Shown here in pieces: positions 21,561-46,600 of a stretch of 64,000 nt of DNA. Position numbers and translations under genes: made by a program. The DNA is from Amoebophrya sp. A120 (taxonomy: Eukaryota > Protista > Dinoflagellata), in assembly GCA_905178155.1 (NCBI GenBank), contig CAJINV010000006.1:4408339-4472338 (forward strand). Direction: 5' to 3'. How positions within the stretch are numbered: the first letter of the stretch is position 1; every line of letters starts with the position of its first letter. The notes under the pieces are model-generated. The model saw only the letters and a program-made list of their open reading frames with translations, ran no database searches and was not told where the DNA came from.

Positions 21561-21795
21561 ATCCGCCTCAGGAAAGTGTCTCTCATCCGCTTGTCGGAAA
21601 GTTTGGTATCATCCGCTTTGCGGACAGTTTTGGATATCCGCTTTGCGGAAAGTTTAGCCCAATCCGCGTTGCGGACTGACAGTTTTTGGCTTGACCCAAT
21701 CCGCTTTGCGGACTGACAGTTTTTGGTTTGGCCCAATCCGCTGTGCGGACTGACAGTTTTTGGAATGAGTTTCTGGTCTATCCGTTGAGCGGATA
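21561..21795. repeat. Array of ~8 ATCCGC-NNN-GCGGA hairpin units (24-43 bp spacing)
   Basis: e.g. atccgctttgcggactgacagtttttgg, repeated with variation. Confidence 0.85.
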
Positions 21796-23286: not shown

Positions 23287-23640
23287 TCGATCGCTGAACA
23301 AATGCGATGCTTTCTCCTGTACCGAAATCAAGCGCGATGCTTCTGGCGCCACAAATTGGGCCCCTGGGTTCCTTTCTTTCTCATTGCTTCCGAAATTTGG
23401 AAGGCACGAAAATTCCCCTGTTCCTGTTCTGAGAGATGTAAAATCTATATCTACGCTGCGCTTCGACGTACTTCTTGTGGGGTCCTTCTTGGGAATCCGA
23501 CTGCTCAGAATCTCTTCCACTTTCTCTGATTTTCTTTCTTCTGTGCTTGGACAGGGACTTTTGGTATCTGCGTTGCAGATTGTAGTTGTGCATCAGAGTT
23601 ACTTTTAGGTTCACTAGCCACCTACCACTTCTTTTCCACC

Positions 23641-24459
23641 ATGCCTGAGCAAGTTTTGTACGAAGAGGCACTTGATGGCCAGGATCCTCCGGCCGAAGCG
23701 GGGAAGGATGCAAACGCCGCGGCTGTTGTGGCGTTGTTAGGCTCCCTCGTGGGGAAGGCGACGAAGGAGGTCGCTGACGAGGAGAAGGATGCTGAAGCGT
23801 GCCAGCCTCAGCACGGGCTTTGTGAGGGCGTTCTTCTGTCGGCCGGCAATTTTTCCAAGGCTTTCGGGTCTATCAAGAAGCGAGGCGTCCACTTTATCAC
23901 TTTCAAGGATGAAGCAGACATTATTGGGTTTCTGGGAGTCTTACTCCATGCGGCGAAGATGGAGGCCCACCTGGCGAATAATCTCGGGCTGTCTTTGCTG
24001 TTGCGCTACAGCGTGTATCCGATCTGGGTGACGCTTTTCAATTTTATGTGGAAGGAGACCTCCACGCTTGTGGTGGAGAATTCCGCTCTTCTAGGTGGTC
24101 CGAAGGTTACGAGCACGGAGCCGGTTGATGTTTACGCCCGCCGGGTGTGGGTCTGGCTTGTGTCCGTGGGGATGTCCCGCATGGACACTCTGACTGGTCG
24201 GGGGAAGCCTGCCGACAAATCTGCCCTGCCTCCGCCGCTCAAGAAGTTCCGCTATGGCGAAGGAAAGATGGACGGTCCCTGTGCGATCTATTTACAGCAC
24301 GGGCCTTGCAGTCGGGGAGCCGCTTGCCGCTGGCAGCACAAGGCCCCGGAAAGTTTGGAAGCCCTCAAGCAAGTCGTCACGGCGAAGGGTTGGAGTTTCT
24401 GCCCGGAAGCCGCTTGGAAGAAGCATGATAAGCCGTCCGCTAGTTCCACCAAGAAGTAA
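23641..24459 (+). CDS. CCCH zinc-finger protein, possible Gag-like ORF
   Basis: CAIYLQHGPCSRGAACRWQH = C-x8-C-x5-C-x3-H; intronless 272-aa ORF inside the element. The Gag role is inference. Confidence 0.7.
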   Translation: MPEQVLYEEALDGQDPPAEAGKDANAAAVVALLGSLVGKATKEVADEEKDAEACQPQHGLCEGVLLSAGNFSKAFGSIKKRGVHFITFKDEADIIGFLGVLLHAAKMEAHLANNLGLSLLLRYSVYPIWVTLFNFMWKETSTLVVENSALLGGPKVTSTEPVDVYARRVWVWLVSVGMSRMDTLTGRGKPADKSALPPPLKKFRYGEGKMDGPCAIYLQHGPCSRGAACRWQHKAPESLEALKQVVTAKGWSFCPEAAWKKHDKPSASSTKK

Positions 24460-25621
24460 GGCGCTGCCCTGTTGCAACATCTTGTGGGATGTCGCCGGGG
24501 TGGACCTGTGCGTACGTATTTGCTCTGTGGTCGGCAGATGAATTCTTTTGCGTAACTCTGGCACGCCGTCTACTGTTTTGCGCTAGTGAAGAGGTGCGCG
24601 CCGCTTGGCTGTCTAGTACACTCTATCTGCGAGGGCTGGTGTTCATTTCTTCTTCTTGGCCTGTGGTGGCAGTTTTTCCTCGATCGGTTTTCGTCCGCTC
24701 GGGTTTTGGTGTTTTCACTTTCTACTACCAGCCACTTGTCGGTCCGGCGTCGTCGTCACGCCCTCGTCTATGGGGCGCACCGGTTGTCCCAAATTCATCG
24801 TCTGGTCGCTAGCGTCGTGACGGGTTCTTTGGGCTGCTTCGGCGTATCGGGCCTCCGCCGGTGGGGTAGGTGCTTCCAGGGCGCCTCCTTGTACGACGCA
24901 GTGGGAGATGCTCCCATCGAGCGATCATCCAAAGGGTGATCCTTCCGCTGTGACTGAATAAAATGTATGCCCGGGCAGTAGCAGGCTAGCGAGCCTGTGA
25001 GTCTAGGCTGAGGCTGGTCGGGCGGTATTTTATGTCTGTCCAAGCCCAGCCCTTCTCCGGTAGCCAGGGGCTTGATGATTGTGAGGGTGAACCTCGTCCC
25101 GTTCTGGGTCGAAGTTTGTTTCCCCGCCCACCCACCCGGTTTTGTTTCCGCAGTTACTTCGGATGGGTCGCTAGGTCTCGCGCCGCTCCAGTTTCTTTTG
25201 GGGTAGGACAGAGGCCGAAATATGTCTTCCACAGCGAGGGTAGGTGCTTCCAGGGCGCCTCCTTGTGCGACGCAGTGGGAGATGCTCCCATCGAGCGATC
25301 ATCCAAAGGGTGATCCTTCCGCTGTGACTGAATAAAATAATAGTTGTGACACGGAGGGACGACGTCTGCTCGACGTCCCTCTGTTTAATCTTTTCTCTAT
25401 TTAATCGCGAAGTGAGGTGGAAGTATCGAAATCGATCTGCTTGAAGATGGTTGCCAGCGAGCAGAACAAGGTAGATTTTGAGTTCCATACTTCGTTTCGC
25501 AATTATCTTTTGGGGTGAGTAGGTAGGAAGAGGAACAACATCAAAAATTTAAGATTTTTACGCTCTTAGCATTCAGCACTTCGTAGTTGTTGAAAGAAGC
25601 TACAATTCTTCAGACTCCAAG

Positions 25622-28600
25622 ATGTTGTTGTGCACTAGTTTTATATCAAAGCGCACTTCTAGTTCCGCGACCAGCGCAGCATCACGGAAGCGACGCAGCT
25701 CGAGTGGTTACTTTTTTCGCTGTCAACTACACACTTTCTTGACTTTAACTTTTCTCGTCTTCCTGGCGCAAAAGTCCTCCTCCGTTGTGGGGGCAGGTGT
25801 GAAGGTACTAGGTGGTGGAGATGAGGCCGCGGGTGGAACAACATCAGGAGCATATTGCAGTGAAAAATGCCCCCAGCCCCAAAGTTGCAAAAATTTGTGA
25901 TGCGAAGTTTCCCAATGAAAACTTTTTGCCATGCATGAAAGGAGTATGAATCTTTCTGATGTAGATTCTATTCGTGTATCGCATCGCTTGCATGACAAAC
26001 GTCACTCTTGCTGGGGTCTTTTGCAATACAAATTTTTGCTATTCACGATTGGAAGCCTGTGATGCTGATAGATGCAAGAAGGCAAATTTTTGATTTGGAA
26101 AGGTTTGCAATACAAATGCTCCCAAGTTCGGGGGTGGGGGCTTTTTTCCTTTTGATAGAGCACGACCCTTGGTCGTGGAGGACCACGACGTGCCTAGTGC
26201 AAGAACAAGAACTCATTCTGTGGAACAAGTGGTCACAGAACCTGCAGGAACATCAACGACTGTGGTCCCTACAAGAGCCACCTCCTGTGAACCACGAGAA
26301 GGACCACGACTAGAAGAGGACCCAGGAGTAGATATTACAGGAGTTGTAGACGCATGTAGGTCATCATCATCATCATTTCCATTGGCAACAGCTACACCGT
26401 CCGAACTGCGTCCTGCCACACCGCCCGCGGAAAGCGAAGTGCCGGCGGGTTTTTTATTTCGGCACATGCTATTGGACCGGCATGGGGACCCGCAGGGATT
26501 TTTATGGAAAGAACCACAGGAGCCCACAACGACAAAAGATGTTTATCACGCAGAGGCTATTCCCGCCCCCGACGCAAATGAGGTTCCCGCGGGGTTTGGC
26601 CTGCTGGGATTCCATCAAGGACCTGCTTCACAGCAAAGTGGGAGGCGGCAGAATGGAACTACAAGAACTAACTACGAAAATTATGATATTGAAAACAAAT
26701 GGCACGAGGACGATATCAGTGCGAGTGACGACGCGCTAAGCATCCGCGCCCTTGTAAGCAGTGCCGACGGACGTGGAGCAGAGCCTCCACCACCGGGTAT
26801 TAGAATTGCAAGCGGAACTACTGCAGCTGCAGCTGCGCCACCACCAGCTCCTGCATCAAGTTATACTTCTACCGTCGACGTAGTAGCACCGCCAAGTGAA
26901 GACACCAGCAGGAGAACGTCCAAAACGAGTCAAGGAAGTGGAGCTCCTGCAGCTGCATCGTCCGGTAGTTATTATACTAAAAGTAGTTCATCTCGGTGGA
27001 AATCCGGCGCGCCGGGGCGCAAAGAAAAAATCGCGGCGCGCCAAAAAACTCCGCCAGCTGCCCCGAGAAGTAGGGTCAAGCATGACGCGGAAGGCGAACA
27101 GGATAAAAATTATGTCAATATATCTGTGCTGCCGTCGAGAAAAGTGAAAATAGCAAGTCCAAGACACGACCCCGGCGAGGTAGCCCGACTCGCTGCTGCT
27201 TTGGAAGCGCTATGAATCGCAAAAGTATCTCCCGATACTTGTATAAATGCATTACAAATTTGTTTCCTCAGCATTGAAAATGAAATTTTTATTGCAGAAT
27301 TACCTTGAGAAAAAGATTTGTATTGCATGATTGCAATTTATTACTACGAGTGCGATACTTTTGCACAGGATAGACGCTGCGTTTGCCCGCGAGGGTCATG
27401 GTCGCACCAGAAAGGGATGAGTATAACTATGAATTGCAAAAATGTCTGGGTCTGGGAGATTGCTGAGGTTTGTGATGCTGTGTCTGCCTGAAACAGTCAG
27501 AAGGTGTGCCATGCAAGGCCTAGCATCACAGGTTTTGAGACGGTTTCCCAATCCTTGATCCGCATGACAAACGCCTTCTTTCGGCGACAGGAAAAAGGAG
27601 CTCCCTTTGCTGTCTGAGCATGACAGATTTTTGTGTGATCCAAGTATGCATCACAAGTTCGCATCTTTCCAGACCCAGACATTTTTGCATTTGATAATAA
27701 CATTAATCATAAAAGCTATACTAGCGAGGAACTTGTACAACATCTTCACGGCGGACCACCTGCTGATGCTTTGAAGAACGGCGCGGCTGAGCACGACGAC
27801 CAAAGGGGGCTAGAGGTACCCTCGAGTGAACCACCACCACCCTGGACGACGTCGAGGGGCGAACAAGAAAGGGAGCTGGTGGAACAAGTACCCCGTGTTG
27901 AAGATGAGAAAGGGATGAGAGGCGGAATAAAGAGCCCCGTAGAGCAACTTCATCTTGCACGACGTCAACAAGTAGACCCGTTCGCGGGTAGTTTTAGACC
28001 AGCTGCCGAGCAGCAGAGCAGCAGTCCAGCTGCCCGCGGAGGTGGTCCACCTCTCGACGTTCTTGAGAACGGAGTAGGAGAAGACTGCAGTAAAGTAGGA
28101 CTACAGCATCGACGTTCTCCACCCCGAAGAACAAACACGGCAGGTTCGTTATTACAATGAAAAATGCCCCCACCCCCGAACTTGAAAGTATTTGTATTGC
28201 AAAGCTTTCCAAATGAAACATTCGGCCTCTTGCATGTATCAGCATCACAGATTTCCGATCGTGAATAGCAAAAATTTGTATTGCAAAAGATCCCAGCAAG
28301 AGCGGTGCTTCTCATGTAAGCGATGCGAACCACGACTAGAATCTGCATCAGAAAGCTTCATACTCCTTTCATGCATGACAAAAAGTTTTCATTTGGAAAC
28401 TTCGCATCACAATTTTTTGCAACTTTGGGGTGGGAGGCCCTTTTCACTGTAATATTCGTTTGCAGAAGAAGGGGATCGAGCGGCGGGACCTGGTGGAGTT
28501 CTTGCGGCGCGTCGCCCCCCCGGTGCCTTTACTCCCCCCTCTCCTGTGCTGCGCTGCATGGATTTGGGAGAAAAAATACCGTGGTCACCCTCTTCTTCAC

Positions 28601-31600
28601 CGGAGCTCTTGTTTTCAGCATCTCCGCCGGGTCGTACTGAGGGGGCTCCGAAAGAAGTACAACGGCCAGCCCACTTCGAGAGGAAAATGAAGTCACCGAC
28701 TTCTTCTCCTGAGAGTCACCCGAAAGAACACCGACCAGAGCCAAACTTCGAGAAGCGGCCAGAGCCAGACTTTGAGAGGACGCGAAAAAGCAGAAGTTCC
28801 AGCCCTAGCAGAAGCCGAAGATCAAGTATGAGAGTGCACAACTCGACGTCCCCCTCCCCTCATTTGTATGGCATGAGCACGAGCAGCAAAAATACAGACA
28901 CCAGGAGCTCCAATGGAGCGTTGGCTTTCATGTTGGCATCAAGTTGATTCGCCTATAACATAGCATTGTGTCGTGGTCTCCTTCTTCCGAGATTATTCGT
29001 CATGCAAAAATAAACCGTGTCACACTTCTCACAACGCGACGATAGGATTTTGGATTTTGCATTACAAGTGAGGGGGACGACGGGGAGTTGTTGCGCACGG
29101 TCATATCAAAAAAAAGCAGCAACCGAGTATACGGCCCTCCTGACCATCAAGAGCTTCTTGAGAAACTGCAACACCTGGCCGTGACGCAAGATAGTGTCAA
29201 CATCAAGGAAAGCGAAAGAAAAACTACACCTACAGCTAACCTCCTCAAACGCCAACCACATGCTGGCGATTTGGCCGCCTTCTCTCGCGGAGATTTGGCC
29301 GCCGCGGCGGTTGGGAATGGGAGTGAAAGTGCTCCTCCTAGTGGTGCATATCAAAAGGAAAAATCCCCCCTCCCCAAAACGAAGTTTCTGATGCTGGATT
29401 TGCGTACACAAATCAGATCTGTCTTGCTGGGGAGGACTTCAGGCCTATACTAAGCCTCAGTAGAGAGGTTTCGGGCTAGGCACTGAGCATGGCAAGCGTC
29501 TAGTTTGTAGGGCCCATAGCATCACAGATCGCCTGCAGAATGCGGCGGAGCCTGTGGAGATGCGTTTTTGCATGACAGAGACGATTTGTGGTCACAAATC
29601 AGCATTGCGAATTTTCCGAGGCGTACCTTTTCGATATGGGGAGGGAGGATTTTTCCTTGCGATAGTGCACCTCTCGACCACGTTCTAGCGCCGGTCGTGG
29701 ACGAGGTTGACCAAGTACATCACACGAAAATCAGCAAAGAAGGAGACGCTCCTGTTGATCATCAGGTAGAAGTAGTAGAGCAGAGTCGACGTGGTCCTCC
29801 GGTAGAAATATTAAATCCCCCTACCGGCGGCCTTGGGCTTGGCAGTATCTTTGGAACGGCAAGTAGAACCGCGGAGAATTGTGCGCAGAGTAGTTGCCAA
29901 CACAACGGGCAGGACGTGAAAATAGTACCTTCGGAAGAAGAAGAAGTACAAGTTGTAGCACAACAAGATGAAAAATCCTCATCCATCCGGCAAGATGGAC
30001 CAGCACGGTCGTTTAACGAGGCTGTAGATCTCGCAACTGCAACAGTGCGTCGTAGTGCTGGAGGTCGTGCCACGGGTTGCCGTACTAGTTCATCATCATC
30101 AAGATCATCGTCATCATCATCCTCATCATTATCGCCCGGTCCTTGCAGTGCTACTTTCACCGCACCGTCGTCGTCGTGTACTGCTTCCAGAAGATCTTCC
30201 CGTAGACGGCGGCGAAAAATAAACGAAACCGACGCGGCATTTTTGCCCGCGAGCGAGACCAAGGAAGATGAAGATCCAGCATCTAGTACTAGTCCGGCGG
30301 TGCGGCGGCCGGATTTTGATAAACAAAGGCCAGATCTTCAAGCCACAGGGCTGGCAGCTGCTGCTCCCGGTAGTACCGATCCCTCGGGCGGGATACTGCA
30401 CGAAGATGAAGAATTAGAGCGGCAGTGGTCACCAGTGACAGCCCTTGAGCCGGAACCGGAGCCTGCAGACCATGGTGCAGGAGTCGATGTGTCACCAACT
30501 AGATATCAAAAGTAAAAATGTCTGGGTCTGGAAACTTGTGATGCTGGGTGGCGTCTCATGATGAGGCTACAAACGCTGGCTCAGCATGACAAGTTTCTGA
30601 GCTCCTAGCTGTTGCCTATTCTGCATGACAAACTGCGCTTCTGCATCACAGAAAAACGGAGCTCTTGGGTAACTAACGTGCATGACAGATTTAACAGTCA
30701 TGCCAGACAAGCATGACAAACATGAATTCTTCCAGACCCAGACATTTTTGCATTTGATACTAGAACACATCAAACAAGTCCCCACGAGGACACGCGGCTG
30801 TTGTTGCCGACAGCAGTAGTTCCTGCTTTGCTGCCAAACAACAATGTTGAAGAACCTGTAGCACGACAAGAAGATCATGAGCCTTTTTCATCTCGTGGTC
30901 GAGAGCATGTAGTTCATCTTCCAGTCGAGGAAACTGACGGGCAAACGAGAGCGTTACTAGAGTTTTTATGTGGTGTAGCAGAACGAGCTGCAGTGGAGGT
31001 ATTCTAAGGAAAAATCCCCCCTCCCCATATCGAAGATTTGTGTTGCTGATTTGAGGTCACAAATCACGTCTGTCTCGCAAGAAGACAAGGGGAGAGGCCT
31101 CCGCACCATTATGGAAGCGATTTGGCATGCTGTTGCGCCTAGGGGACGCCTGTTTGCAATGCTAAGCAACTAGACCTATACGCCCCTACCTAGGCCGAGG
31201 ATCTGGCTGCGATGCCTTACTGCAAGACAAATCCGATTTGTGTACCCAGATCCTGCATGACAGATTTCCATTTCGATATGGGGAGGGGGAGTTTTTCCTT
31301 TTGATAGGAGGAGAGCCACGACCACGAGGAGTCTATGCAGGAAAAAGTAGAACAAGGACCAGCATCAAGCGAAGAGAAAGAACTACCACAAGCAGCTGCA
31401 GCAGCAAGACCGGCCGCGCAAGAACGTGACGAGATGAGCAGTAGAACTGCTCACCAGATGAAAGCAGAAATTAATATACCTCCTCATGGTGTTGAACAAG
31501 ACATCAATCAGAGCCATAATCAACCGTTTCCTTTTTCCCAGGAAAATAAAAACCCGTTTTACCCCTACAACAGCTACGATGAAGCGCTCGAGGATATCCT

Positions 31601-34600
31601 GAGTAAAAACGTACCCACACCATAGTCAAGATGGGGAATCGGCTAGACAAATCCACAAGTTTTGGCTGTTTTGCATGACAAATTTGGATTCGTAGTATAG
31701 TGCTGTTTGAGCTAGCTCAGCAGCATCACAGATCTAGCATACCATGCTGATTGGAGCATGACAAATTGCAAAACATGACTAGAAAACGCTTCTCATGGAG
31801 CTCCGCATGAGAAACATTTTCAGCATGCAGATTTGCATTACAACTCTGGCGTGGGTACGTTTTTACTCAGGATAGAGGACGGGTTTTTGGCGATCACCCG
31901 AGAGGTTTTGAACAATATCAAATGCAAAAGTGTCATCTGGGTCTGGAAGGTTGTGAGACTTGTCATGCAGATTTTCCATGATCCATGTCGTCTGGAATGC
32001 AGGACCTAGTAGCGTGACAGATTCTGTGAAATCCCTATCATGCCTATCCTGCATGAGAAACGTCCTCTCAACTTGGTCAAAAGTGGGCACGCTTTGGGGT
32101 TGTCCGTCATCGTGATAGGGTCAGCAAGTATGACCAATAGACCCCAGCTTACGTAATAGCGCGCAACCGGCCACAAAACTAAGACGCGAGCAAGTTTGTA
32201 AGTCTAACCCTTCAAGGCCACGCCGAAGCTCCACCTCGCTCGCGGGCTTGGATGGTAAGGGGGTTCTGCCACACGTAGCGCCCACGGGTCGTAGTTGCGC
32301 GTAAGTAATCGATAGCGGTTTTGCGGATGCGGCCGGGTGGTAGATAGGACGCGGAGCAAGTATCCACCTAGGGGTATCGGCAGAGGCTAAATCTGTTCTA
32401 GCGCCCAGGTATTAGCAGAGGCTAAATCTGTTCTAACGCCCACCCGCCAGGAGTCAAATGGTCACTACTACTACTACTAACTTGGTCAAAAGTGGACAAC
32501 TTTTGGCATTCATGCAACACAGATTTTTGCACGATCCAGAATTGGCATTACAAGTTGCATCCTTCCAGACCCAGACATATTTGCATTTGATAAACAGGCA
32601 CCAGCGGACATTTCAGTTTTCGGTCTCGGAGACCGCGGGCCAAGCGGAACTGCGGCGAATCGAAGAGAAGCGGCTGCAAGAGAAACGGGATTTCGAACAG
32701 CTCCAAGACGAACAGACGCGCAAGCGGCAGAGTTTTTTCAATTTTCTCACCAGCCAAGCACCGCAGTTCGAGTTTGCAAAGTATCTCGGGGTCGGGGGGT
32801 CGGGCGACGGGACAAATCATGCCTGGGCGAGTGTAGAGCAGGCGCGGAATGGCGCGGATATGCTGGAAACGAGACGGGCCCGCGAAGAAGCCTATTTCTG
32901 GTGCACGGAGCATTTGAAGTTGGTGCAGTCAGACTTTACACTATGGGGTCGTCAACGTTGTATTTGCCTCAGACCGTAAAAAAAATTCTGCGCGCATTTT
33001 TTCGCGGCGCGAAGCTAGTAAACCTGTGCACGCTAGTGAGGGGCTGACTTGAAGGCGGTTTGTTTTACCTAGCTTGTCAGAAACAGTGCTCCAGTAGGTA
33101 AGTGAGTATTGACGCGAAGGGGGGCGGGGTGCTGGGGGTTCTTCTGTGGCTGATGTTTCCACCTAGAAAACGCCGGGCGCGCGCAATATTTTGCTCCGTT
33201 TTCCGGATTGCTCTCTCCGTGCAGCTATTTGCCGCTATGGCCTGGGTCAGCGTGTGAGGCTGGAAACGCCCCGCGAGATGCCTACACAGGCCCTGGCCTC
33301 GTCGCCTCTAGCAGGCACCACACACACATGTTGGCCGCGAAGGCCTTTCCGGAGCCCTTCCAAAAAGGGGGGGCCGGAGGGGTACCCGGAACCCTAAAAA
33401 AAAGCCTATTGCCTTTTCTTCGAATCACGATGCTGCTACCCCTCCCCAAAAGGGGTCCCGGAACCCCTCGGGGAACCCTTCCCGAAAGGGTCTCGGGCTT
33501 TTCGCATTTTGCCGAAAAAGCCGCAAAGGCAAAATGCGCGCGCGCCTGCCGGTACACGCGTGCGCAGCTGCGCGACATTAGAAACAAGAGGAGGCGCAGC
33601 CGCGGCCGGTTCCGTTTGCGCCCTCGACTCCGACCGACTTGCACAGATTGAGGCCCATTGTCTAGCGGCTGGACTGCAAGAGGACCTGCTGCAGCACCTC
33701 CAGGCTGCAGGGGCGCTCCGAGGCAAGTCCGTGGAGCAGCAGCGCCGGATAGCTCCGTCTTTAGCCACTGAGAAGCGCTGCGAATAGGCTAGCTATTTCA
33801 TTAGGTGCGCAACATAGTGGGGGGCTATACGTGTGCAACGTGATGGATATCAAATACAAAAAAAGGCGCGCGGAAATTTTTTTACAGCTTGAGGCAAATA
33901 CAAGTTTGACGACGCCATATACACCGGGTGGGCTGTACTACAACAATGCATACAAGAATAGAGGAGTGGATGAAGCAGCAGCGCCAGGGGTAATGCGAGG
34001 GGGTCTGCGTGGTCTTCGAAGAAGGGCACAACAAGATGTTGAAACAAAGGCACTTCTTCTATCAAAAGGAAAAATCCCCCCTCCCCATATCGAAAAGGAA
34101 ACTTGTAATGCTGGATATGCGTACTCGTACACAAATCAGATCTGTCTTGCAGTAGAGAACTGCAAGCATATGCCAACCCTGGGCAGCGAGGTTCTGACAT
34201 AGGCACCCAGCATTACATATGTCCACGCTGTAGGCCGAGCAGCATCACAAACCGCCTGCACAACGCGGCGCAGCCTGTGGAGTTGGCTACATGCAAAACA
34301 GAGACGATTTGTGGTCACAAATCAGCATTGCAAATTTTCCGTGGCTTCTTTTTTGATATGGGGAGGGGGGATTTTTCCTCGCAATATCTTCGCGACCTAG
34401 CGGAAACGACGATAGAGACGGTATTAGAAACCCCGTTGTGCCGGCAGTATTTGCTCTTAAACGTCCCATATCAACTGTAAAAATGTCTGGGTCTGGAAGA
34501 TTCTGACACTTGTCATGCATAATTTGTATGACCCATGATGCCTGCATATGCATGCCCTAGCATGACAGTTTTTTTGAGAGCTTCTTGATGCCTATTCCGC

Positions 34601-37600
34601 ATGACAAATGCCCTCTCCGCGTAGCAAAAATTACACGTCTTTTGGTACTCATGCAATACAGATTTTTCTGGAATCCAAATGCAGCATCACAAGTTGCATT
34701 CTTTCAGACCCAGACATTTTTACGATTTGATATCCCAGATAGCCGCATGGAGCACACGTTCTTTCAGACCCTGCTCGGCATGGGTGTCTGCTCCATCGGG
34801 GAAAACTACCAGAATTTTCGCCGGAGACAGGACTTTTACCACGACAAATTTCCTAAAAGCAGGCTCGGCGGAGGACTTCTAAACGCGGGCATCATGGAGT
34901 TGCACATTCGGGAAGAGTATGGATTGCAAATATGTCTGAGTCTGGAAACTTGTAATGCTAAAAGTGAATGACAAACGCACTGCAATACGCAGCTATACGT
35001 GACAGATTTTTTGGCTGCCATGTCTTACGTATTCCGCATGGCAGTCTGCGTTTTTGCATGACAGGTAAGAGGGCCTCTTCGTGGCTATGCAACACAGATT
35101 CTCGAGTCATGCCAGACAAGCATGACAAACCTGGCAATCTTCCAGACCCAGACATTTTTACATTTGATAAAGAGTGTAGTAGAAGTACTGCTACTTCTCA
35201 TGAAGATCCTAGCGATCATCGTCCTGAAGTAGGTTTTGAAGGCCCTGGTGAAGGTGGAGCTGAAGCTCCACCTGCTCCTGCCCCTACTTGCCAGAAGAAG
35301 ATGGTGATGTTTGCCGACTTATCCTGAGTAAAAACGTCCCGGTAAATCTGCAACACATATCCCCAACTTTTGGGAGCTGTGCATGAGAAGTTTCCATCTG
35401 CAGCGTAGTGCTGATTAGCAAGGACACCCGCATCATAAAGATGCCTGCTCATCATGCTGTTTACAGCATTACAAACGCCAGAACACAAACACCAATTCCT
35501 CTTGTCCGGATGCGCATTACAGATGCAGATCTGCATGACAACCAACTATGAACCGGGAACGTTTTTGCCCGGGATGAGATTCCATAGGTGAGGAAGTTGT
35601 CCTCCCCTACGAGGACGCGTGTTTATCCCTGATTCCGCAGCACCTGGTATCAATTGCAAAAATGTCTGGGTTTGGAAGAACGCAAGATTTGTGATGCAGG
35701 TTTTCCATGACCCATGAGGTCTGGAATGCGAGACCCAGCATGACAGATTCTTTGAGGTCTCTATCATGCCTTTCCTGCATGAGAAGCTCCCTCTCAACTT
35801 GGCCAAAAGCGGAACACCTTTTCGTACTCACGCAACACAGATTTTTGCATCATTCAGATTTAGCATGACAAGTTCTAATCTTCCAGACCCAGACAGTTTT
35901 GCATTTGATACCTGGCGCAAAACCGGCACTTTCTCATGAAGCTCGTTGACGAATCGCGGACCCGTTTCGACAGCACCGTCTTCAAAAAAGACAAAGACTG
36001 GGTATGACTTGCTCAAACCGGTTACCATCTCAAACGTTACAATAGAAACTGAGATTTGTCTTGCATTATGAGCATCACAGACTCGACGCAGAGCGTTCCA
36101 CTTTCTGCAATACAAATTTCGCCAGATTGTAGTGGGGTTTGGTGCTCCGGAACCTGTCATGCGCAATCCTATGAGAATTGGCTAGATCATGCACTCTTGC
36201 ATCACAGATTTCCATATTCTATTGTAACGCTTGAGATTGTAACACCTGAGCGGGTTATACTGGCAAGAAGGCCTGGCCGGGCGGTTTCCGGGGGACGGAC
36301 AGGGCCCCGCAACGTTAAGTGAGCGGGCGGACTTGGATAGTGACCTAAACTCAATCGCTATCCTGAGAAAAAAGTGTTACAGTTACACATTGTGTTGCGA
36401 GCCCAGCATGACAGACAACCTCTGTCATGCCAGAAATGCTTCCGCGCTTCATTTCATACGTGCTTTCCCTTATGTTCTGTGCATTGCAAGTTTTCCCTCT
36501 CATGCAGAGAAAATTTGTGTTGCTGAAGTTACAACAAATGTGTGACTGTGACACTTTTTTCTTGTGACAATCGCGGCGAGCAGCCTCTCCACGCTGATGG
36601 CGGGGCTGGGCTTGGGCAGCAATATCCTGTGTAAAAACGTCCCCACCTCCCCAGAGTTGTCATAGGATACAGATTTGCAATTGCAGGAGCATTTGTAAAA
36701 ATGCGCGTCCCCAAGAGAGGCACTTCCAATCGCGTTTTGGCATTTGGTAAAATGCTGCAAACAGGATATTAAGCAGGTGGATTTGTGATGCGGCTGTCCT
36801 TGCTAAAAATATGCGCAACACGACTACGGAGTGCAAGAACTTGTCTGCGTGGCTCCCAAAACTTCTGGATTTGTGTTGCTACGTTCCCAATCATTGACTA
36901 TGGGGTGTGGGCCCCGTTTTTGCATACGATAAGCAATGCGTCGTCCGGACGAAGCGCCTTGTCTGGCTCGAACTCGCACGGCCATTTGTCGGACCTGTAT
37001 CACAGGAAAAAAGTGTTACAGTTACACATAGTCTATGCAGGCCAACAAGGAAGACAGACAACTTCTGTCATGCCGGATATGCATATAGGAGCCTCGTTTC
37101 ATAATATATGTGTTTTCCCGTAGGATTTCTACCGTGCAAGTTTTCTCTCTCATCATGTAGAGATGAAATTTGTGTTGCTGAGTTCTTCACTACAAGTGTG
37201 TAAACACTTTTTTCGTGGGATAACCTGGACGCTTTTTTCAGTAGCAGCGGGGACGAGGAACGTCAACACAGAGCCCTTATCCTGAGTAAGAACGTACCCA
37301 CACCAGAGTTGTAATGCAGATTTGCAAAGACAGGAAGACTTGTAATGCGCATCCCCATGAGAGCTCGCGTATTGGAATTTGTGATGCTGTCAACAGGATG
37401 AGCAGATGGATTTCTGATGCGTTTGCCCTTGCTATAGCCTGCACTACGCTGCGGAATGCAACTTGTCCTGCGTGGCTCCCAAAACTCCTAGGCTTGTGTT
37501 GCAAAATCCCCATCCTGACTCTGGTGTGGGAACGTTTTGACTCAGGATAGCCCTGGGGCAAAAAACTCTGCGGGGCCGCCAGACAGCGGAAACTAAACAA

Positions 37601-40600
37601 GTACCGGCAGTTATGGATGTGTCAGAGTTGAAATCGACAAAGTTGAAATAATTTGTCATGCATAAAATGGATGCCAGTTGGAACCCAGTTGCCAAGTGGC
37701 GCATGACAAATTTCGGTGGTCTCTAAATCGAGTTTGTCATGCTGCTTGGGCAAAGAAGAGCGATTTTCTCATGCTACTTTAGCAGCTCGAGCTGTAACCC
37801 CAAACAGGCTTACAATCGGCCTCACTTGCCTGCTCTGCAACACACGCACCTCGGGTCATGCATTTTATGCATTACAGATTATTTCAACTTTGACGATTTC
37901 AACCCTGACGCTTCCATAGCAGTAGACCCGAAGTTTTTGTCGCCGTTGGTGGAGTATCAAATGTAAAAATGTCTGGGTCTGGAAGAGTGCGCGATTTGTC
38001 ATGCAGCTTTTCCATGACCCATGAGGTCTGGAATGCAGGGCCTAGCATGACAGATTCTGTGCGACCTTTCTCATGCCTATACTGCATGAGAAACTGCCTC
38101 CCGACTTGGTCAAAACTGGACGACTTTTGGTAATCATGCAACACAGATTTTTGCATGCTGCAGATTTAGCATGACAAGTTGCCTTCTTCCAGACCCAGAC
38201 ATTTTTACACTTGATATGGAGGTGCGTACGGAGCATGGGTCGCCAGAAATAACAGCGCCGGCGGCCTGGGAAGGAGGAGATCATTCTCGTGGTTCTCGTC
38301 CAGAAGGTTTTGTAGCATCGCTAGCTTCGCTGAGTTTGCTACGAGAATGCACAAGAACTCCCCTTCGTTCTCATTTCTCATGCAAAACAACAAGTCCATG
38401 CTTTCCTTATACACGAATCAGCATAAACAAATTTGTCATGCAAAAGCGGCACAACTCTTGCTGACGCTTGTATTGCTGTTCATGCAAGAACTTTTATACA
38501 AATGAGGGGGAGACCACGAGCGGGGAGTTGTGCACTCTCATATTTGCCGCCCGGATTTTCTATCAAATGCAAAAATGTCTGGGTCTGGAAGAATCCGAAA
38601 TTTGTTATATGCTGTTTTTGCATGACACAGAATGTCTGTCATGGAAGCCCTAGCATCACAGATTTTTAGAGGCCTTCCTGATGCCTATTCCGCATGACAA
38701 ATGCCCTCCACGCGTAGCACAAACCGGACTCCTCCTGCTGGTCATGCAATACAGAATTTTTTAGAGTCCAAAGTTAGCATCACAAGTTCCAACCTTCCAG
38801 ACATCCAGGGATTTTTGCAATCCATATTTTCGGGTCCCTCATCGCGGTCGTCTTCGCGAAGTAGAGTCTCGTCTCCACTTATCGCCAGAAAAAACTGTTT
38901 CACTGTAAACTTGTAATGCAGAAAATGTATTTCACAAGTGCTTGTCTTGCTACACATGCAAGACAGTGGATCGTCAGCTGTGTTTTATTCCCTTAATAGG
39001 AACCTTGCATGGCATATTTTCTCTGTTATGTAGAACAAACTTGTGATGCAAAACCTGCAAAATCTTTACAGTCGTGAAACACTTCTTTCGTTCGATACTA
39101 CTAATATCTTCGAGCGCGGCCTCATTAGCCTCGTCATTAGCCGCGTTCTCGCGCTCTGAACATCCATCGACAGCAGCGGCTGCTGTACAGGGAACTACTA
39201 CATCGAGAACAAGCAGAACAAGCAGTGTCATTTATTACAATGAAAAATGCCCCCACCCCCGAACTTGAAAGCATTTGTATTGCAAATCTTTCCAAATGAA
39301 ACATTCGCCCTCTTGCGTGTATTAGCATCACAGATTTCCGATCGTGAATAGCAAAAATTTCTATTGCAAAAGATCCCAGCAAGAGCGGTGCTTGTCATGC
39401 AAGGGATGCGAAACACGACTAGAATCTGCATCAGAAAGATTCGTACTCTTTTCATGCATGACAAAAAGCTTTCATTTGGAAACTTCGCATCACAAATTGT
39501 TGCAATTTCAGGGGTGGGGGGCATTTTTCACTGTCATATCACTCCTTCTAGTAGAGATGAGGCATCAGGTCCTCGGGCCGGCTATCAAATGTAAAAGTGT
39601 CTGGGTCTGGAAGCTTGCCAGGTTTGTCATGCATATTTTGGAAGACTCATGATGTCTGTGATGCATGCTCTAGCATGGCAGATTTTTAGAGGCCTTTGTG
39701 ATGCCTCTACCGCATGAGAAATGCCCTCTCGTCCGGGTAGCACAAACTGGAGTTCTGTTGCCGGTCATGCAATGCAAATTCTTTTAGAATCCAGAGACAG
39801 CATCACAAATTTAGAATCTTCCAGACCCAGACATTTTTGCATTTGATACCGGCGCGCCGGGATCGTACGCCCTGTTAGGTGATTGGAAACGACAGACGCG
39901 CGGCGCGGTAGAGGCGTACTCGCAATACATCTTAACTTTCTCGGGCGTGGGGAAGTTGTTGCAACTGTACCACGCCTATGCATTGCAAACATCGATCTGG
40001 GTCTGGAAGGGTGGAACTGTAATGCTAATTCTGGATCGTGCAAAACTCTGTGTTGCATGATGCCAAAAGCTGTCCACTTTTGACCAAGTTGAGAGGAGGT
40101 TTCTCATGCAGGATAGGCATGATAGGGATCTCACAGAATCTGTCATGCTAGGTCCTGCATTCCAGACGACATGGATCATGGAAAATCTGCATGACAAGCC
40201 TCGAAATCTTCCAAACCCACCCATAAATTTGCATTTGATAACACCCCCGCGACGAGAATTTTTTCTCCGACAGGAGGGGAGGAAGACAAGGACAACACGT
40301 ACATCGACGTGGGACTCTTCGCGCACTATTTGTTAAACACGGGCACCACTTACACGCCCTTAATGGTGTGGAACAACTTTCACGATTACGATGAAGAGTT
40401 CCTCTTCGCCAAACCTTTCGGCTACCGTAATCTGCTGAAAACCTGGTTCGCCGTGCCGCCAATGGATCGTGAGGAACTACCTGCTGCTCCAAGTTCAACA
40501 CGAGGTGGAACTACAGACGCACACTACCACCAGTTGCACCACGACGAACCCCAGGATGTCGTGATGGATTTAAGCAGCGTCAGCGAGACTGCGTTTGTCC

Positions 40601-43600
40601 GCCAGTACTCGAATGCGAGCACCGGTAGGGAAGAGCAAAACATGGATTTGAATCTAGACACTGACCTGGTCGAAAACTTGGACAAATCTAAAATCCCGGG
40701 CGCCTTGTATCATATGTGAAAACGTCCCCACCCCGACCAGAGCCTGCGGGACCCTGAGGGCAGAAGTCCCCAGCCCCTACAGCACGCGCACGCACTAAAT
40801 AAATAAATTACAGTGGCCACATAGCATATGCGTTTCTCTTCTAGTCGTAGTTCGTTCTCCTCTTGATTTTTTCTGAAAATTCGAAGTTTCTCTGTGCTTG
40901 AAATTTGGTCTTTTCCAGTACATAAACACCCCATAGTCAATGATTGGGAACTAAGCAACACAAATCCAGAAGTTTTGGGAGCCACGCATGACAAGTTGCA
41001 GTCCGTAGTGTAGTGCATGTTAGCAAGGACAATCGCATCACAAATCCATCTGCTTAACTATCCTGTTTACAGCATCACAAGTTCCAAAACGCGGTTGATT
41101 ATGCCTGGCATAAACATGCGCATTACAAATCTTCCTGTCATCGCAAATCTGCATGACAACTCTGGCTTGGGGACGTTTTTACACAGGATACCTTGCTCTG
41201 GATCGCCACGCGGATGCACACGAGCAACCCCGAGTTTTGGAAAAAGACCGATATGAACTGCAACTATGTCTGGGTCTGGGAGAGTACAACTTGTGATGCT
41301 GCATTTCGATGCTGAAAAAATCTGTATTGCATGACGAGCAGCTCCTGCAAGAGGAGTCAAATTTTGCTACGCGGAGAGGGTATTTGTCATGCGGGATGCG
41401 CATCGATAAACGGCCAAAAAAATCTGTGATGCTAGGGCATACATAACAGACACCATGGATCATGGAAAATGTGCATGACAAACTTGTCCTCTTCCAGACA
41501 TCCAGGGATAATATTATGCATTTCATAACCGACAGCGAGCAGCAAGTTCCCTCTGGGACGCCCTCGGACACACTGAAAGAGCTGCGCCAGCTATCCTGTG
41601 CAAAAGTATCGTATTCGTATTGCAATCATTCATTACAAATTTTTTTCTTAAGGTAAATCCGCATTACAGATTTTATTCCTCATGCTGAGGAAATTTGTCA
41701 TGGATTTATACGAGGGCAGAGTGCGATATTTTTGCAGTTCATACCAGCTGGTGAAATACAAATTCTTCGGCATAGTTTCGCCAGCGGCACGAAAGAAGTT
41801 GCCATCAAGCGGTACAACGACGACAGGGACGAACAACATCTCCAAGCCCGGAGGTCAACATCTGGGTAGTTCACCTCTCCTGCAAGGCACCGCTCCTTTG
41901 AAAGAGCCGGATGGCAGCTTGTTAGACCACAATAATCTTCGTCCTCGAGAAAGAAGTATCAAGTGCAAAAATGTCTGGGTCTGGAAGAATTCACGTTTGT
42001 CATGCTTGTCTGGCATGACTCTTAAATCTGTGATGCACGTTACCCAAGAGCTCCGTTTTTCATTTTCTGTGATGCAGAAGCGCAGTTTGTCATGCAGAAT
42101 AGGCAACACCTAGGAGCTCAGAAACTTGTCACGCTGAGCCAGCATTTGTAGCCTCATCATGAGACGCCACCCAGCATCACAAGTTTCCAGACCCAGACAT
42201 TTTTACTTTTGATAAAAAGTGCTGCAGAAACCTCATCGTCAGAAAAAAATCTTCACACGCGCATCCTCATTCCCGAGTTGTTTCGCGCTAGTGAATATCA
42301 AATGTAAAAATGTCTGGGTCTGGAAGATTGGAACTTGTGATGCTGCGTCTGCATTATGCAAAAATCTGTATTGCATGAACAGCAAAAGAGAGGGGCATTT
42401 CTCATGCTTTTGGCCACGGTGAGAGGGCATTTCTCATGCAGTACAGACATCAGAACCACCTTACAATATCTGTGATGCTACGGCATGCATCGCAGACGTC
42501 AGGAGTCACGCAAAATGTGCACGACAAACCCTACATCCTTCCAGACCCAGACATTTTTACATTTGATAGTGAAAGAAATGCATGGACATCAAGTAGAACT
42601 CGACGCACGACTAGTAGAACTGGTGGCACGAGTTGTACGACGTCGACCCCGGGTAATATCGACACCCTCGCAGGTGCAGGAGCAGCACGTGGGCCGCAGG
42701 AGGCTATCGAATGCAAAAGTGTCTGGGTCTGGAAGATTGGAACTTGTGATGCTAACTTCGGACGCTAAAAGCCTCTGTATTGCATGGCCAGCAAGAGGAG
42801 TCTAGTTTGTGCGACGCGGGGAGGGCGTTTGTCATGCGGAGTAGGCATCAGGAAGCCCTGTGAAAATCTGTGATGCTAGGGCGTGCATTACAGACGTCCT
42901 GGGTCATGCAAAACATGCATGACAAGCCTCAGAATCTTCCAGAGGACCCAGACATTTTTAAATTTGATAGAGGCCCTGCAAAGGCAACGTTCCATCGACC
43001 TGCAGCCTGACAAAGCCATTGAAATATTTGTGCACGAATCTAACGAGGGTATTAATATGTACAGCCACTTGAGCTGCAGGAGCTCCTGCTCCAGGGCGAC
43101 TTTGAATTTGGACGAAGATCATCAGCAGGATGTTGATGCTGCAGCAACCATATGGATTGCAAAAATGTCTGGGTCTGGAAGGGTTGGAACTTGTGATGCA
43201 AACTCTGGAACACACAAAAATTTGTGTTGCATGAGCGCCAAAAGCTGTCCATTTCTTGGCACGCAAGTAGGAAGTTTCTCATGCGGGACAGGCATCGTGA
43301 GGCGTGCTCAAAACCTGTGATGCTTTTGCCTGCGTCAGACGTCATTTGGGTGATCCGAAATATGCATGACAAATCTCGGAATCTTCCAGACCCAGACATT
43401 TTTACATTTGATAAACCACTGCAGCACGACAAGCTGCAGCTCCTCGTTCTTGCCCGTCCTTCGAGCCGCGTATCGAAGTATTTTTCTCGAATTACCCCGT
43501 CGTGAGTGCAGCTGTGGCGGCCGAGGATGTCGATGGAGGGAAGCACGACCTGCCGGACGATCTTTCTGGTGCAGATGGAAGAAGTTGTACTAGCAGAGAG

Positions 43601-46600
43601 GAGGTGCCGCGAGCTGGAGATACAGCTAGAACTTCTACCTCCAGTGTAGTCACCCTTAGCCAGCAGCGCTGGGTTCCGCCGATATCAAAGTGAAAAATAA
43701 ATCCCCCCACCCCATAGTACTTACTCAAACTAGAAATTTGTGATGCAGATTTGTGGTTACAAATCAGCTTTGTCATGCTAGAGCTAGAAGGGAAAAGATG
43801 CGGACTATAGTGCTGGTTGGCGTGGGAAAGCCTTGCATCTTCAGCATGACAGGGGGCAGCTGGAAGTGGGAAACAGCATGACAAATTGCTTGCAAACGAG
43901 GCCACAGCTGCGTCTCTTGGCCTTCTAGCATTACAAGTCGATTTGTGTACTCAAATACAGCGTCACAAGTTTCGTTTTCGATATGGGGAGGGGGGATTTT
44001 TCCTTTTGATAGCCGACGCAGGTTATTTTTCCCCTCGACTCCGTCGATGAAGACTTATGCAAGAAAAAACAAAATGCTGTGTAAGTGTGAGGAATAGCAT
44101 CACAAGTTTATGCTCTGCATGACAGAGAAAACTACCTGTCATGCTTAGCTAGTATCAGTGCAAACACGTACGAAAAGAACCTCTGATGCATGGGTCTAGC
44201 ATGACAGGTGATAAGTGTTTTACATACGTCTGCAACACAAACTCACACTTACACAGTTTTTTTCCTGGATAAGACTTGCACGAGGACTACATGAAAGATC
44301 CTTTCAAGCGGGCTAACAACTGCAAATATGTCTGGGTCTGGAAAGTTGTGATGCTAATGTGCGAATGATCCGCAACGTTTATTTGGGGTCCGCGCATGAC
44401 AAGTTCCAGAGCGGCTATGCCTAGCATCAGCTCCATGACACATGGCTCTTTGTGTGACAGACAAGTGGCACGACTGTAGCGCACGAAGCATGACAGACTT
44501 TTCTGTCTCGTCGGCCAAGCATGACAGACTTGCATTCTTCCAGACCCAGACACATTTGCGTTTGATACGGAGTATCGTGAAGCAAATCTGGCAGGAGAAC
44601 GACGTGGTAAAAGTCTCGCGGGGGATGGCTGGTCGGGTACAAGTCGCGGCGCCGAAAGGAGCTGCACCAGCAGGGCTGCAACATCTGGCTATGCAAGAGA
44701 AAAGCTGTGTAAGTGTAACTTTGTGTTGCAGGACATGCAACAGAGTTGCGCCTCCTGTCATGCCAGACAGCCATGAAGTGGTCCTCTTTTCATGTGTGTT
44801 TTGATGTTCCCTTACAAGCCACGCATGACAGGTTACTTACTTATTTCCTCTATCCTGTAGAGCAAATTTGCGATGCTGTCAGCCAAAGAAAGTTGCACTG
44901 ACGCAGTTTTTTTCTTGGATACTGGCCCCCATTGCTGCGCTGTACGCAAGAAAGCCGACGTTTTTGTGCAAGCCGCCCGGTAGTTCATCAACATCGACCT
45001 CGTCCCGTGCAGCATGTATGTCGGGCGAGCGGCTGTGGCATGCTGTGTTGTCCTCGGAAGATGCAAGAAACATCGAGGGGATCCGAGATGACACGTTTTG
45101 CTTTCCGTTTGTCGATCTGAAGAGTGTGAGTCTGAAAAGGCGCGACGTCGAGTTCGAGGTTTTGTTGGAGCAAGAGCGAAACTATAACGAAAACGACCCA
45201 AACCTGGTAGAGCTGTTCAACAAAAAGGACCAGGCTCTTGTGGAGAGCCTGGAAAATCTATCCTGTGCAAGAGTATCGTACTCGTAGTAATGGCGTTTCT
45301 GCATAGTGCAAATCTCTTTCCCACAGTAAAGCAGCGTTACAAATTCAATTTGTAATGCTGGGCTAAGTTGTTGTAATGCAATTTCTACTAGAACGATGCT
45401 TTTGCAGTTCATAAAATCATTTCGACGACCATATTTACGTCGACCCTGAGCAATTGCTGTTTCACTTTCCGCCCTCCGCCGTCGTCCCTGATGTTGCTGG
45501 TGCAACATCAGACCTGTCTACCAGCACCCCGCCGCCGCATGATGCTGATCTGCTGCTGCGGTACCGGAGCGTGCACCAGCGTGCCATGAACCGCATGGCG
45601 CACCGGGCCCGGAAAGACCTGTACTCGATCCGGGTGGTGCGGATATGAGACTGCACAACTTTCCCTCCCCGCCCTCATTTGTCATGCAAAATTCCCAATC
45701 CACCCTTTCTTTACCTCTTGGCACTGTTTGCATGATAAGTTCTGGTAGCCCAAATAGCACTATATTCGAGTGCAAGTGTGTCATGCAAAACCGGCACTCT
45801 TGCTGATGCTTGTATTGCCGTTCATGCTATACAAATAAAATATAGGGGCAGGGGAAGTTGTGCACTGTAATAGCGACATACCTTCTACGCGAAGGGTATT
45901 GACTTCTACCACCACGGTGATCGCACGGTCTTGGATCTGCAAGACGCGGGGTTGCTGCGTTTGGATGATCAAAGCTTGGCGAGTAAGGTGGAAATTCGCA
46001 ATCAGGACAGACACGAGGGGCAGAAACGCGTCCGCACGAACGCGTTCGCCGTGGCGCAAGCGCGGAAGTGGTACGACCGGAAGATCCATTTTTGCTTCGG
46101 CTTCCTCTTTGACGTGCTGGATACGCAGATCAAGCCGGTCTTACTGGAAGTGGAACGGAAAATGCACTGGCTTCAGGACCTGCATTATGCAAGAGAAAAA
46201 CTGTCGTGTAAGTGTAACTCTGTAAAAATGCAGAACAACATGCAACAGAGTTACTACACCTGTCATGCCAGACAGCCATGAGAAGTTCTCTGCTCATGTG
46301 TGTTTTCCCTTACAAGCCACGCATGACAGGTTTTCTCTTTCATGTAGAGCAAATTTGTCATGCTGTCAGCCAAAGATAGTTACACTAACGCAGTTTTTTT
46401 GTTGGATATGCATCACAAGTACAACAACAGCTTTACACTTCCCCAATTTGACGAGGCGACGCGGGAGCAGAGGACAGAAAGCCCGGAACTGTGGCAAGAG
46501 CTCTGGGACTATTATACCGTACAGTATCAAGCGGAGCATGATATTAACGGAGCAGGAGGAGCATCTACAACTGCTTCGCAACGAGGAGGTCGTGGTGTAC

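Follow-up and report, generated by a model that had tools for sequence, protein, structure and literature searches.

Ciliate IESs are transposon-derived sequences that lie within coding sequence, have ends starting with TA and are removed precisely in either orientation; their removal takes place on DNA, in a separate somatic nucleus. The introner-like elements of Aureococcus and Polarella are reported to have been treated by Huff et al. in 2016 (as cited in PMC10228655 and bioRxiv 10.1101/2020.10.14.339549). Spliceosomal introners of Polarella and Aureococcus can work in either orientation (bioRxiv 10.1101/2020.10.14.339549). Like the elements analyzed here, those of Polarella glacialis and Aureococcus anophagefferens are derived from DNA transposons, produce target duplications and include several two-way classes, but they depend on G[T/C/A] and AG supplied by the element or by the duplication, and each of their simple two-way classes favors one orientation (bioRxiv 10.1101/2020.10.14.339549). 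The elements of Amoebophrya sp. A120 show neither an enrichment of G at +1 or of AG nor an orientation lean. Euglenid nonconventional introns resemble them in non-canonical borders, offset terminal pairing, duplication-like repeats and a likely MITE origin, but belong to another lineage, have offsets of +4 to +6 with -8 to -6 (versus +2 with -5 here) and have been shown to yield circular products (PMC11282704). The MITE-derived introns of Fritillaria borealis are also inverted-repeat elements with non-GT-AG ends, handled by an adapted U2-type spliceosome, but differ in their dominant AG-AC/AT motif and in retaining U1 (PMC11282704, PMC13326754).

Introner elements themselves are already known in A120. 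Farhat et al. (2021, PMC7789003) described IEs with inverted repeats, direct repeats of 3-5 nt, a hairpin and a length of ~250 nt, and 66,565 introns were validated from RNA-seq. About 65% of A120 introns lack GT-AG, and the splicing route is treated there as an open question. Nearly all spliceosomal proteins were reported, together with U2, U4, U5 and U6 snRNA, while U1 was not found. According to the legend of Fig. 3, splice positions vary with respect to the hairpin, and the legend of Fig. S23 places the inverted repeats 1-5 nt from mapped splice sites.

We analyzed a window of 64,000 nucleotides from A120, meaning the whole stretch of contig CAJINV010000006.1 under study. Judged by sequence, its elements belong to the introners that Farhat et al. 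described (PMC7789003), because the 3' part of the host ORF corresponds to Amoebophrya sp. A120 protein P0001. The elements have TAT repeats and a direct repeat at the border, fall into families, are absent from RNA-like contigs and lie in an A120 host. They share with the published IEs the end motif of TAT, 7 nt and AAA (section 11 of PMC7789003), inverted repeats, a hairpin, a length of ~250 nt, 5-nt direct repeats, non-canonical borders and an abundance of tens per gene. In contrast to that account, whose cited text gives no element orientation and calls splice positions variable, the elements here are unbiased in orientation and one register fits.

A total of 390 elements were found, from which 136 with an uncallable host strand were dropped. 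The remaining 254 formed a pooled set of 62 from the window and 192 from at least 141 loci of one other assembly set (prefix JACKZZ01; an estimated ~450 stretches in all), the latter being up to ~96% identical to window elements. A tblastn search of P0001 against that assembly set gave no match. Across the 254 elements, end composition was T 1.00, A 1.00 and T 0.98, with A at 0.85-0.93 at positions 11-13, under a detector pattern that required TA[TC]..[AG]TA. Direct repeats in the window were perfect at 5 nt for 48 of 62 elements, rising to 55 of 62 when one mismatch is allowed, and none of the 62 had a perfect repeat of 3, 4, 6, 7, 8 or 9 nt. There were 9 families of at least two members in the window and 12 of at least three in the pooled set.

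The host gene, its element starts and one 978-nt element are as follows.

25553..46734, plus strand: host reading frame, 2831 aa from stop to stop once 43 elements and 5 nt for each are removed
Element starts in the host gene: 25853, 27211, 27428, 28150, 28827, 29349, 30504, 31000, 31595, 31916, 32942, 34060, 34469, 34918, 35320, 35648, 36003, 36359, 36623, 36998, 37278, 37612, 37955, 38340, 38561, 38880, 39233, 39583, 39977, 40708, 41252, 41592, 41957, 42296, 42705, 43151, 43683, 44056, 44314, 44690, 45259, 45644, 46186
32942..33919, strand uncalled: 978-nt element of another family than the copies listed below, direct repeat TACAC

We removed 5 nt with each element because the flanking direct repeat is 5 nt and RNA-like joints skip the element plus 5. 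The first methionine of the resulting frame is at 25622. Residues 1664-2807 align with the N-terminal 1144 aa of P0001 and differ from it at two positions, both at mismatched direct repeats. Exon 40243-40707 agrees with P0001 at 100% identity; the public model of P0001 starts 1663 residues inside the frame. Removing 0, 1, 3, 4, 6 or 7 extra nt per element left a longest frame of 379 aa, while 2 or 8 kept the frame trivially. Retaining any one of the 43 elements, tested one by one, broke the frame. The initial annotation had placed all copies in one plus-strand ORF whose frame they restore. The single ORF stands as a predicted frame, but the frame is restored only if one copy of the 5-nt duplication leaves with each element. 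A division into two genes (ORFs of 1406 and 1490 aa) was rejected, as removing the 978-nt element fuses the ORFs. P0001 matched no Pfam family, Rfam gave no match within 25000-47000, and a weak search with the low-complexity exon 29667-30500 found no longer protein containing it.

Several families have members in opposite orientations within this gene.

30504..30759, plus: copy A, 256 nt, direct repeat CTAGA, putative intron 30503-30763
41957..42214, minus (inverted relative to A): copy B, 258 nt, direct repeat AGAAG/AAAAG, putative intron 41956-42218
25853..26157, plus: copy G1, 305 nt, direct repeat GAGCA; X1 joint 25847>26158 skips 310 nt
28150..28454, minus (inverted relative to G1): copy G2, direct repeat TTCGT
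39233..39538, minus (same way as G2): copy G3, direct repeat TCATT/TCACT
29349..29664, plus: member of a three-copy family, joint skipping 321 nt
31000..31306, minus: inverted member of that family, repeat GGAGG; joint 30994>31307 in X1 and X2
34060..34386, plus (as 29349): third member of that family, joint skipping 332 nt

Copy A aligned to the reverse complement of copy B with 245 identities over 252 aligned bases (7 mismatches, 10 gap positions), while forward alignment was confined to the terminal repeats. With 45 nt trimmed off each end, the local score was 273 in reverse versus 18 forward. Reverse-complemented G2 and G3 matched G1 at 267 and 266 of 305 aligned positions, and G2 matched G3 forward at 283 of 305, with approximate end coordinates in each case; trimmed G1 and G2 scored 310 in reverse versus 26 forward. 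The earlier descriptions of A and B as near-identical reverse complements, and of G1 as inverted relative to G2 and G3, were therefore borne out by alignment. The GGAGG repeat of element 31000 happens to yield GT..AG at the register derived below.

Removal was assessed from assembled joints in runs X1-X4, which are RNA by guess and come from a single sample, with joints drawn from contigs of depth 3-5. Among 18 elements tested in 25400-36800, 16 were skipped by exactly their length plus 5 (15 listed joints and one from contig pieces). These included both orientations. Skipped elements ranged from 162 to 978 nt, the largest by joint 32936>33920 in X1, X3 and X4 (983 nt skipped). Copy A was skipped in X1 by joint 30497>30759 (261 nt), and one X1 contig skipped four more elements, with 193 letters observed and 193 expected. 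Support for G2 was indirect, as an X2 contig begins at 28455 preceded by 12 unplaced letters. Element 31916 had no joint among those listed; nor did copies B and G3, although the junction of B is reproduced by P0001. X1-X4 cover the gene patchily, no run recorded as RNA covers this stretch, and raw RNA runs X9 and X10 match element ends only and no exon of the gene. In DNA-like run X5, copy A is in place (pieces 29635-30530 and 30735-31034), and piece 41673-41980 extends into copy B.

Element orientation was tabulated against host strand over all 254 elements, in place of the genome-wide tabulation suggested in the initial annotation. Related pairs numbered 875 in the same orientation versus 860 in opposite orientations, with 208 elements falling in families of at least three. 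There is no orientation bias among the elements, although a weak bias may exist at the family level: one family leaned 14:4 (p = 0.03, uncorrected, one of 12 families), and the family of A and B stood at 13:23 (p = 0.13), neither of which we take as bias. Composition at the first 22 positions was equal at both ends (all p ≥ 0.26). In predicted folds, all but one of the 43 elements have 12 or more of their first 25 nt base-paired to their own 3' end, giving an end-to-end stem offset from the cuts as in euglenids. Predicted stems of copies A and B had z-scores of -9.5 and -4.9 relative to shuffles. These results, together with the skipping of both orientations in RNA-like contigs, support a symmetric removal signal. 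The further step from orientation freedom to non-spliceosomal removal was overstated, because inverted-repeat ends read alike either way and orientation independence does not by itself exclude the spliceosome. A literature search found no report of unbiased orientation, exact element-plus-5 skips or a single register for A120 introners.

A single register fits all informative junctions: the intron is 1 nt, the element and 4 nt, as set by the direction of transcription. The removed piece fits N-TAT…ATA-NNNN, cut after base 4 of each copy of the duplication. Cut windows at the 16 RNA skips intersect only at repeat base 4, which is also allowed by 25 of 25 P0001 junctions, one of which allows nothing else. 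G3 is among those that constrain the cut, with P0001 demanding base 4 or 5. The informative junctions, 4 RNA-like joints and 6 from P0001 in one gene, all agree. In seven elements a mismatch at repeat bases 2-4 shows which copy is kept (RNA-like contigs give 2 of these, P0001 gives 5). All seven retain the upstream copy, with a chance probability of 1 in 128. Examples are listed here.

28827..29105, strand uncalled: repeat TCAAG/TCAAA, cut at base 4 or earlier
35320..35576, strand uncalled: repeat CGACT/AGATT, cut after base 4 or 5; ends ATG, not ATA, yet is skipped
36003..36259, strand uncalled: repeat CTGGG/CTGGC, cut at base 4 or earlier
44314..44567, strand uncalled: repeat CGGGC/CGGAG, only a base-4 cut reproduces P0001; skipped in X1 record 7

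In this register, the TA at the element end occupies intron positions +2/+3, the same place as in GTA. The spliceosomal 5' splice-site consensus begins with GTA, and a GT-AG intron at ~63528 starts GTAAG. The U at +2 and A-rich +3 of U2-type introns are thus present, given the inferred register. All nine predominant non-canonical A120 motifs in Table S4 of Farhat et al. have T at +2 (PMC7789003); such motifs depend on aligner placement of junctions inside the duplication. In strain A25, the repeats start with TTA and the predominant borders with TT. Repeat base 4 closes both the exon and the intron. It was G on the sense strand in 106 of 254 elements against a background of 0.31 (p = 0.0004; window 30 of 62, other loci 76 of 192), a modest enrichment and one of 20 tests. 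The mirror position was not enriched (C at base 2 in 72 of 254). Variant ends occurred on the 5' side only at repeat position 3 (4 of 224) and on the 3' side at positions 1-2 (6) and position 3 (1), a difference (Fisher p = 0.015) that comes from a small, post hoc test and becomes 0:3 versus 4:1 (p ~0.14) without three window cases. The elements do not have the GT/GC...AG borders of U2-type introns: G at +1 (80 of 254) and terminal AG (23 of 254) were not preferred, and GT..AG was at chance (7 observed versus 7.2 expected), and no register gave more than 7 of 254.

We consider it somewhat probable that a modified U2-type spliceosome cuts the elements from pre-mRNA and reads the terminal repeat itself as a splice signal. 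The elements would have been inserted by DNA transposition, and the stem between their ends would pair the splice sites and replace U1-type recognition. The 5' splice site would have a free +1 with a fixed U at +2 and A at +3, the 3' cut would lie at a fixed distance of 4 nt beyond the repeat rather than being defined by AG, and an A at -7 may be the branch point. Orientation would be irrelevant because both ends carry the same repeat. Weighing against a U2-type reading, the lack of preference for G at +1 or AG is unusual for a spliceosome, and the stem would mask both presumed signals until unwound.

It is conceivable, if doubtful, that a spliceosome-independent or specialized pathway recognizes the stem and ligates the exons after cutting 1 nt upstream and 4 nt downstream of it, as has been proposed for euglenids, whose introns carry asymmetric stems and are released as circles (PMC11282704). 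The predicted end-to-end folding, far better than shuffles for A and B, is in keeping with such a pathway, as are the unpreferred boundary dinucleotides, the immateriality of interior length and sequence (162 to 978 nt skipped) and the failure to find U1 snRNA in A120 (PMC7789003). However, the stem follows from the inverted-repeat ends, with no evidence of its use, and the register reproduces +2U/+3A with G enriched at the cut. No 5' TA variants were seen whereas their 3' mirror variants were. The tips of some skipped elements are poorly paired: 34060, 34918 and 36359 have a predicted terminal-pair probability below 0.1, so that removal does not require exact pairing of the ends. Only tentatively, then, can a dedicated, orientation-blind, stem-reading pathway without lariat chemistry be credited with removing tens of thousands of transposon insertions from mRNAs.

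We find it improbable that removal occurs on RNA with variable cuts, such that the register and strand hints are small-sample effects and orientation freedom is a by-product of symmetric ends. The informative junctions are few and from one gene, low-depth contigs conceal minor forms, and the Fig. S23 legend gives a spread of 1-5 nt (PMC7789003). Nevertheless, 10 of 10 informative junctions agree, such a spread is expected from unresolvable junctions inside a perfect 5-nt repeat, and the two independent sequence sets both show the G enrichment at the base that was predicted. Excision from DNA before transcription in the manner of ciliate IESs, raised in the initial annotation and making X1-X4 excised DNA or its transcripts, is highly improbable: although inverted-repeat ends and a target duplication are features of DNA transposons, X1-X4 are RNA by guess, and one DNA-like run was examined with 2883 X5 joints beyond those listed, 8 of 8 listed X5 pieces run from exon into element unbroken at depth 40-48 with no differing letters, 0 of 15 listed X5 joints are element-plus-5 skips, a symmetric reaction predicts the mirror register about half the time whereas 7 of 7 keep the upstream copy, X1-X4 coverage of the gene is patchy, and 66,565 A120 introns were validated by RNA-seq (PMC7789003). 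Unlike ciliate IESs, the A120 elements persist in this one DNA-like run, and their register follows transcription.

The fixed register of 1 nt, element and 4 nt predicts an exact position for the 5' splice site, branch point or nuclease cut. The register rule would also allow A120 annotation to be corrected, for example at P0001. Unbiased orientation and freedom from G at +1 and AG would explain how the elements can fill coding sequence; unlike the introners of Polarella or Aureococcus, they would make no demand on the target site. If a dedicated pathway did exist, any insertion with a 5-nt duplication would be silent, and the whole coding genome would be a safe landing site.

The central observation concerns one plus-strand gene, in which the same introner occurs in both orientations. 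At least 64 elements with TAT starts and ATA ends were located in the window. Their flanking direct repeat is perfect at 5 nt in 48 of 62 elements, and in none of the 62 at 3, 4, 6, 7, 8 or 9 nt. The copies considered here are:

25553-46734, plus strand, host frame holding 43 elements
25853-26157, plus orientation, element G1
28150-28454, minus orientation, element G2
30504-30759, element A
32942-33919, longer element of 978 nt, located by a scan for longer elements
39233-39538, minus orientation, element G3
41957-42214, element B, opposite in orientation to A

A agreed with the reverse complement of B at 245 positions, against 7 mismatches and 10 positions in gaps, whereas in the forward alignment the match was confined to the terminal repeats. 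Reverse complements of G2 and G3 were 87-88% identical to G1, and G2 and G3 were 93% identical to each other in the forward direction. Because reverse scores remained far above forward scores after trimming the terminal 45 nt (273 versus 18 for A/B; 310 versus 26 for G1/G2), the inversions noted in the initial annotation are real rather than an effect of symmetric ends.

Taking out all 43 elements (25853-46408) with 5 nt each produced a single plus-strand frame of 2831 aa, so A and B were correctly placed in the same ORF; leaving in any one of the 43 broke this frame. A division of A and B between two genes was rejected, as removal of element 32942-33919 unites the frame. Exon 40243-40707 was 100% identical to P0001, a public protein (1302 aa) named as Amoebophrya sp. 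A120, and the 3' part of the frame matched it at 1142 of 1144 residues. Relative to the 2831-aa frame, the P0001 model has its start at residue 1664 (region 25553-36595). As RNA-like joints continue upstream of this start, through 36351>36568 and 32936>33920, the host gene is probably split in the public annotation.

Several longer stretches were also noted. The ~1.4 kb at 46660-48125 has inverted ends, the left one eroded, with palindromes inside; P0001 skips it by way of a duplicated exon segment, and record 7 of X1, an RNA-like contig run, is predicted to end just before it at 46656. Longer elements at 31916-32592, 40708-41190 and 16228-16618 apparently carry a second insertion or are composites of two families. 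A 2-kb TAT…ATA element with a TACCA repeat (8931-10932), in surroundings that look intergenic, contains a 13-nt tandem array as well as a 92-nt unit present in 13 copies.

Removal was followed in runs X1-X4, contigs from one sample whose RNA status is an automatic guess. Of the 18 elements between 25400 and 36800, 16 were skipped, each skip equalling the element length plus 5 nt (15 at listed joints, one via contig pieces); these include A and G1 as well as the 978-nt element, which is skipped in three runs. Among the joints listed there, none supported a skip of element 31916, and the skip of G2 has only indirect support. One family was directly skipped in both orientations (29349 and 34060 versus 31000). 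One X1 contig crosses four further elements, and the 193 letters found between its placed pieces equal the predicted number; removal of B and G3 is based on P0001. In X5, a DNA-like run, all eight displayed pieces continue across the exon-element border at depth 40-48 with no differences; a further 2883 joints of this run fall outside the display. Separately, ~190 reads of the raw RNA run X9 match only 35824-35910, the end of an element, and are flanked on either side by foreign sequence; X1 and X2 share this loose end, which is a short element piece retained in another locus's transcript.

All window families with at least three copies were present in both orientations (e.g., 8:11 and 5:5). 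We widened this set with 141 loci from another assembly set, among the matches listed, that share the end motif. The automatic element finder recovered 54 of the 64 curated window elements, and host strand was assigned from codon use and frame continuity for 254 of 390 elements (62 in the window, 192 at the loci). Across the window and the 141 listed loci, with the added loci judged on sequence alone, there is no orientation bias relative to the host strand: same-orientation pairs of related elements numbered 875 and opposite-orientation pairs 860, and for nearest relatives the counts were 112 and 104. Family by family, the three largest split 42:36, 13:23 and 12:11, or 19:21, 4:11 and 8:6 with stricter strand calls, and one family among 12 leaned 14:4 (p = 0.03, uncorrected). 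Over the first 22 element positions, 5' composition did not differ from that of the reverse-complemented 3' end (p ≥ 0.26). The removal signal proposed initially is therefore symmetric in composition and orientation. Orientation independence would need no special cause if the signal sits in the terminal repeats.

Where the two copies of the 5-nt repeat differ, the junction reveals which base was retained, and hence the cut register; ten junctions, all in one gene, were informative. The sole position common to 16 RNA cut windows was after repeat base 4, which was compatible with 25 of 25 P0001 junctions and was the only one compatible with that at 44314. The removed piece is N-TAT…ATA-NNNN. Seven elements have a mismatch at bases 2-4 that identifies the retained copy, and in all seven it was the upstream one (chance 1 in 128), from which we infer that the register tracks transcription direction and not a symmetric DNA reaction.

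On balance, we lean towards removal by a putative modified U2-type spliceosome, which would read the terminal repeat as sequence while an end-to-end stem would bring the splice sites together. Sequence reading is favored by the T and A that the register sets at intron +2 and +3, by a G enrichment confined to the sense strand at repeat base 4 (106 of 254, p = 0.0004), by variant ends that spare the 5' TA and not its 3' mirror (11 variants among 224, p = 0.015, post hoc), and by three skipped elements whose predicted tips are barely paired. Farhat et al. 2021 (PMC7789003) give T at +2 in 9 of 9 predominant A120 non-canonical motifs (Table S4, aligner-dependent), and report spliceosomal proteins, U2, U4, U5 and U6 in A120, with U1 snRNA not found. 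A stem-guided pathway without a spliceosome is a possible but less probable route: end-to-end pairing is predicted in 42 of 43 elements, the predicted folds of A and B have z of -9.5 and -4.9, and GT..AG occurs at chance frequency (7 observed versus 7.2 expected), yet the +2 T/+3 A, the sense-strand G and the barely paired tips count against it. A variable register is improbable given the uniform fit of RNA windows and P0001 junctions to one cut. The DNA-level excision resembling that of ciliate IESs, as suggested in the initial annotation, is very unlikely, with elements in place in the displayed X5 pieces and a register polarized by transcription.

Other features accompany the gene. The ~3.8 kb at 21342-25122, between direct repeats of ~160 nt (21342 and 24961), is possibly a DIRS/Ngaro-like retroelement; its ORF 22066-23286 has motifs reminiscent of a tyrosine recombinase and no Pfam match at E 0.05, and ORF 23641-24459 gives a weak, sub-threshold match to a CCCH zinc finger (E 0.006). 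Single Ns at 4281, 11211 and 12024 each abut sequence that is exactly duplicated nearby, with copies 1255, 535 and ~97 nt apart, and these are probably assembly artefacts. An exon of the adjoining plus-strand gene (58328-59452) has a LicD-family match (E 7e-6), and this gene also holds elements in both orientations. The gene start at 63044-64000, reminiscent of ER-Golgi intermediate compartment proteins, has two elements and an apparent ordinary GT-AG intron (~63528-63659); its 56-aa first exon had no Pfam match.

The element class is already described, and the observation is real and well supported. According to Farhat et al. 2021 (PMC7789003), A120 elements have TAT-starting inverted repeats, 3-5 nt direct repeats, hairpins and 29,850 copies, with their splicing mechanism left open. 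Polarella and Aureococcus introners function either way round (bioRxiv 10.1101/2020.10.14.339549; PMC10228655), but these have a one-sided lean and conventional splice dinucleotides, in contrast to the unbiased A120 elements. One published search admitted opposite-orientation matches (PMC9860276) and another study filtered for expected orientation (PMC12130899). In mechanism, the introns of euglenids (PMC11282704) and Fritillaria (PMC11282704, PMC13326754) are the nearest parallels. In literature outside subscription journals, leaving aside Huff 2016 and the 2023 Polarella paper, our searches gave no report that Amoebophrya introners are orientation-independent or keep a fixed register. The unbiased orientation and the single transcription-polarized register both appear unreported, while Figs. 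3 and S19-S25 of Farhat et al. may already show the register. With these two properties, how Amoebophrya splices becomes a question that can be tested directly.
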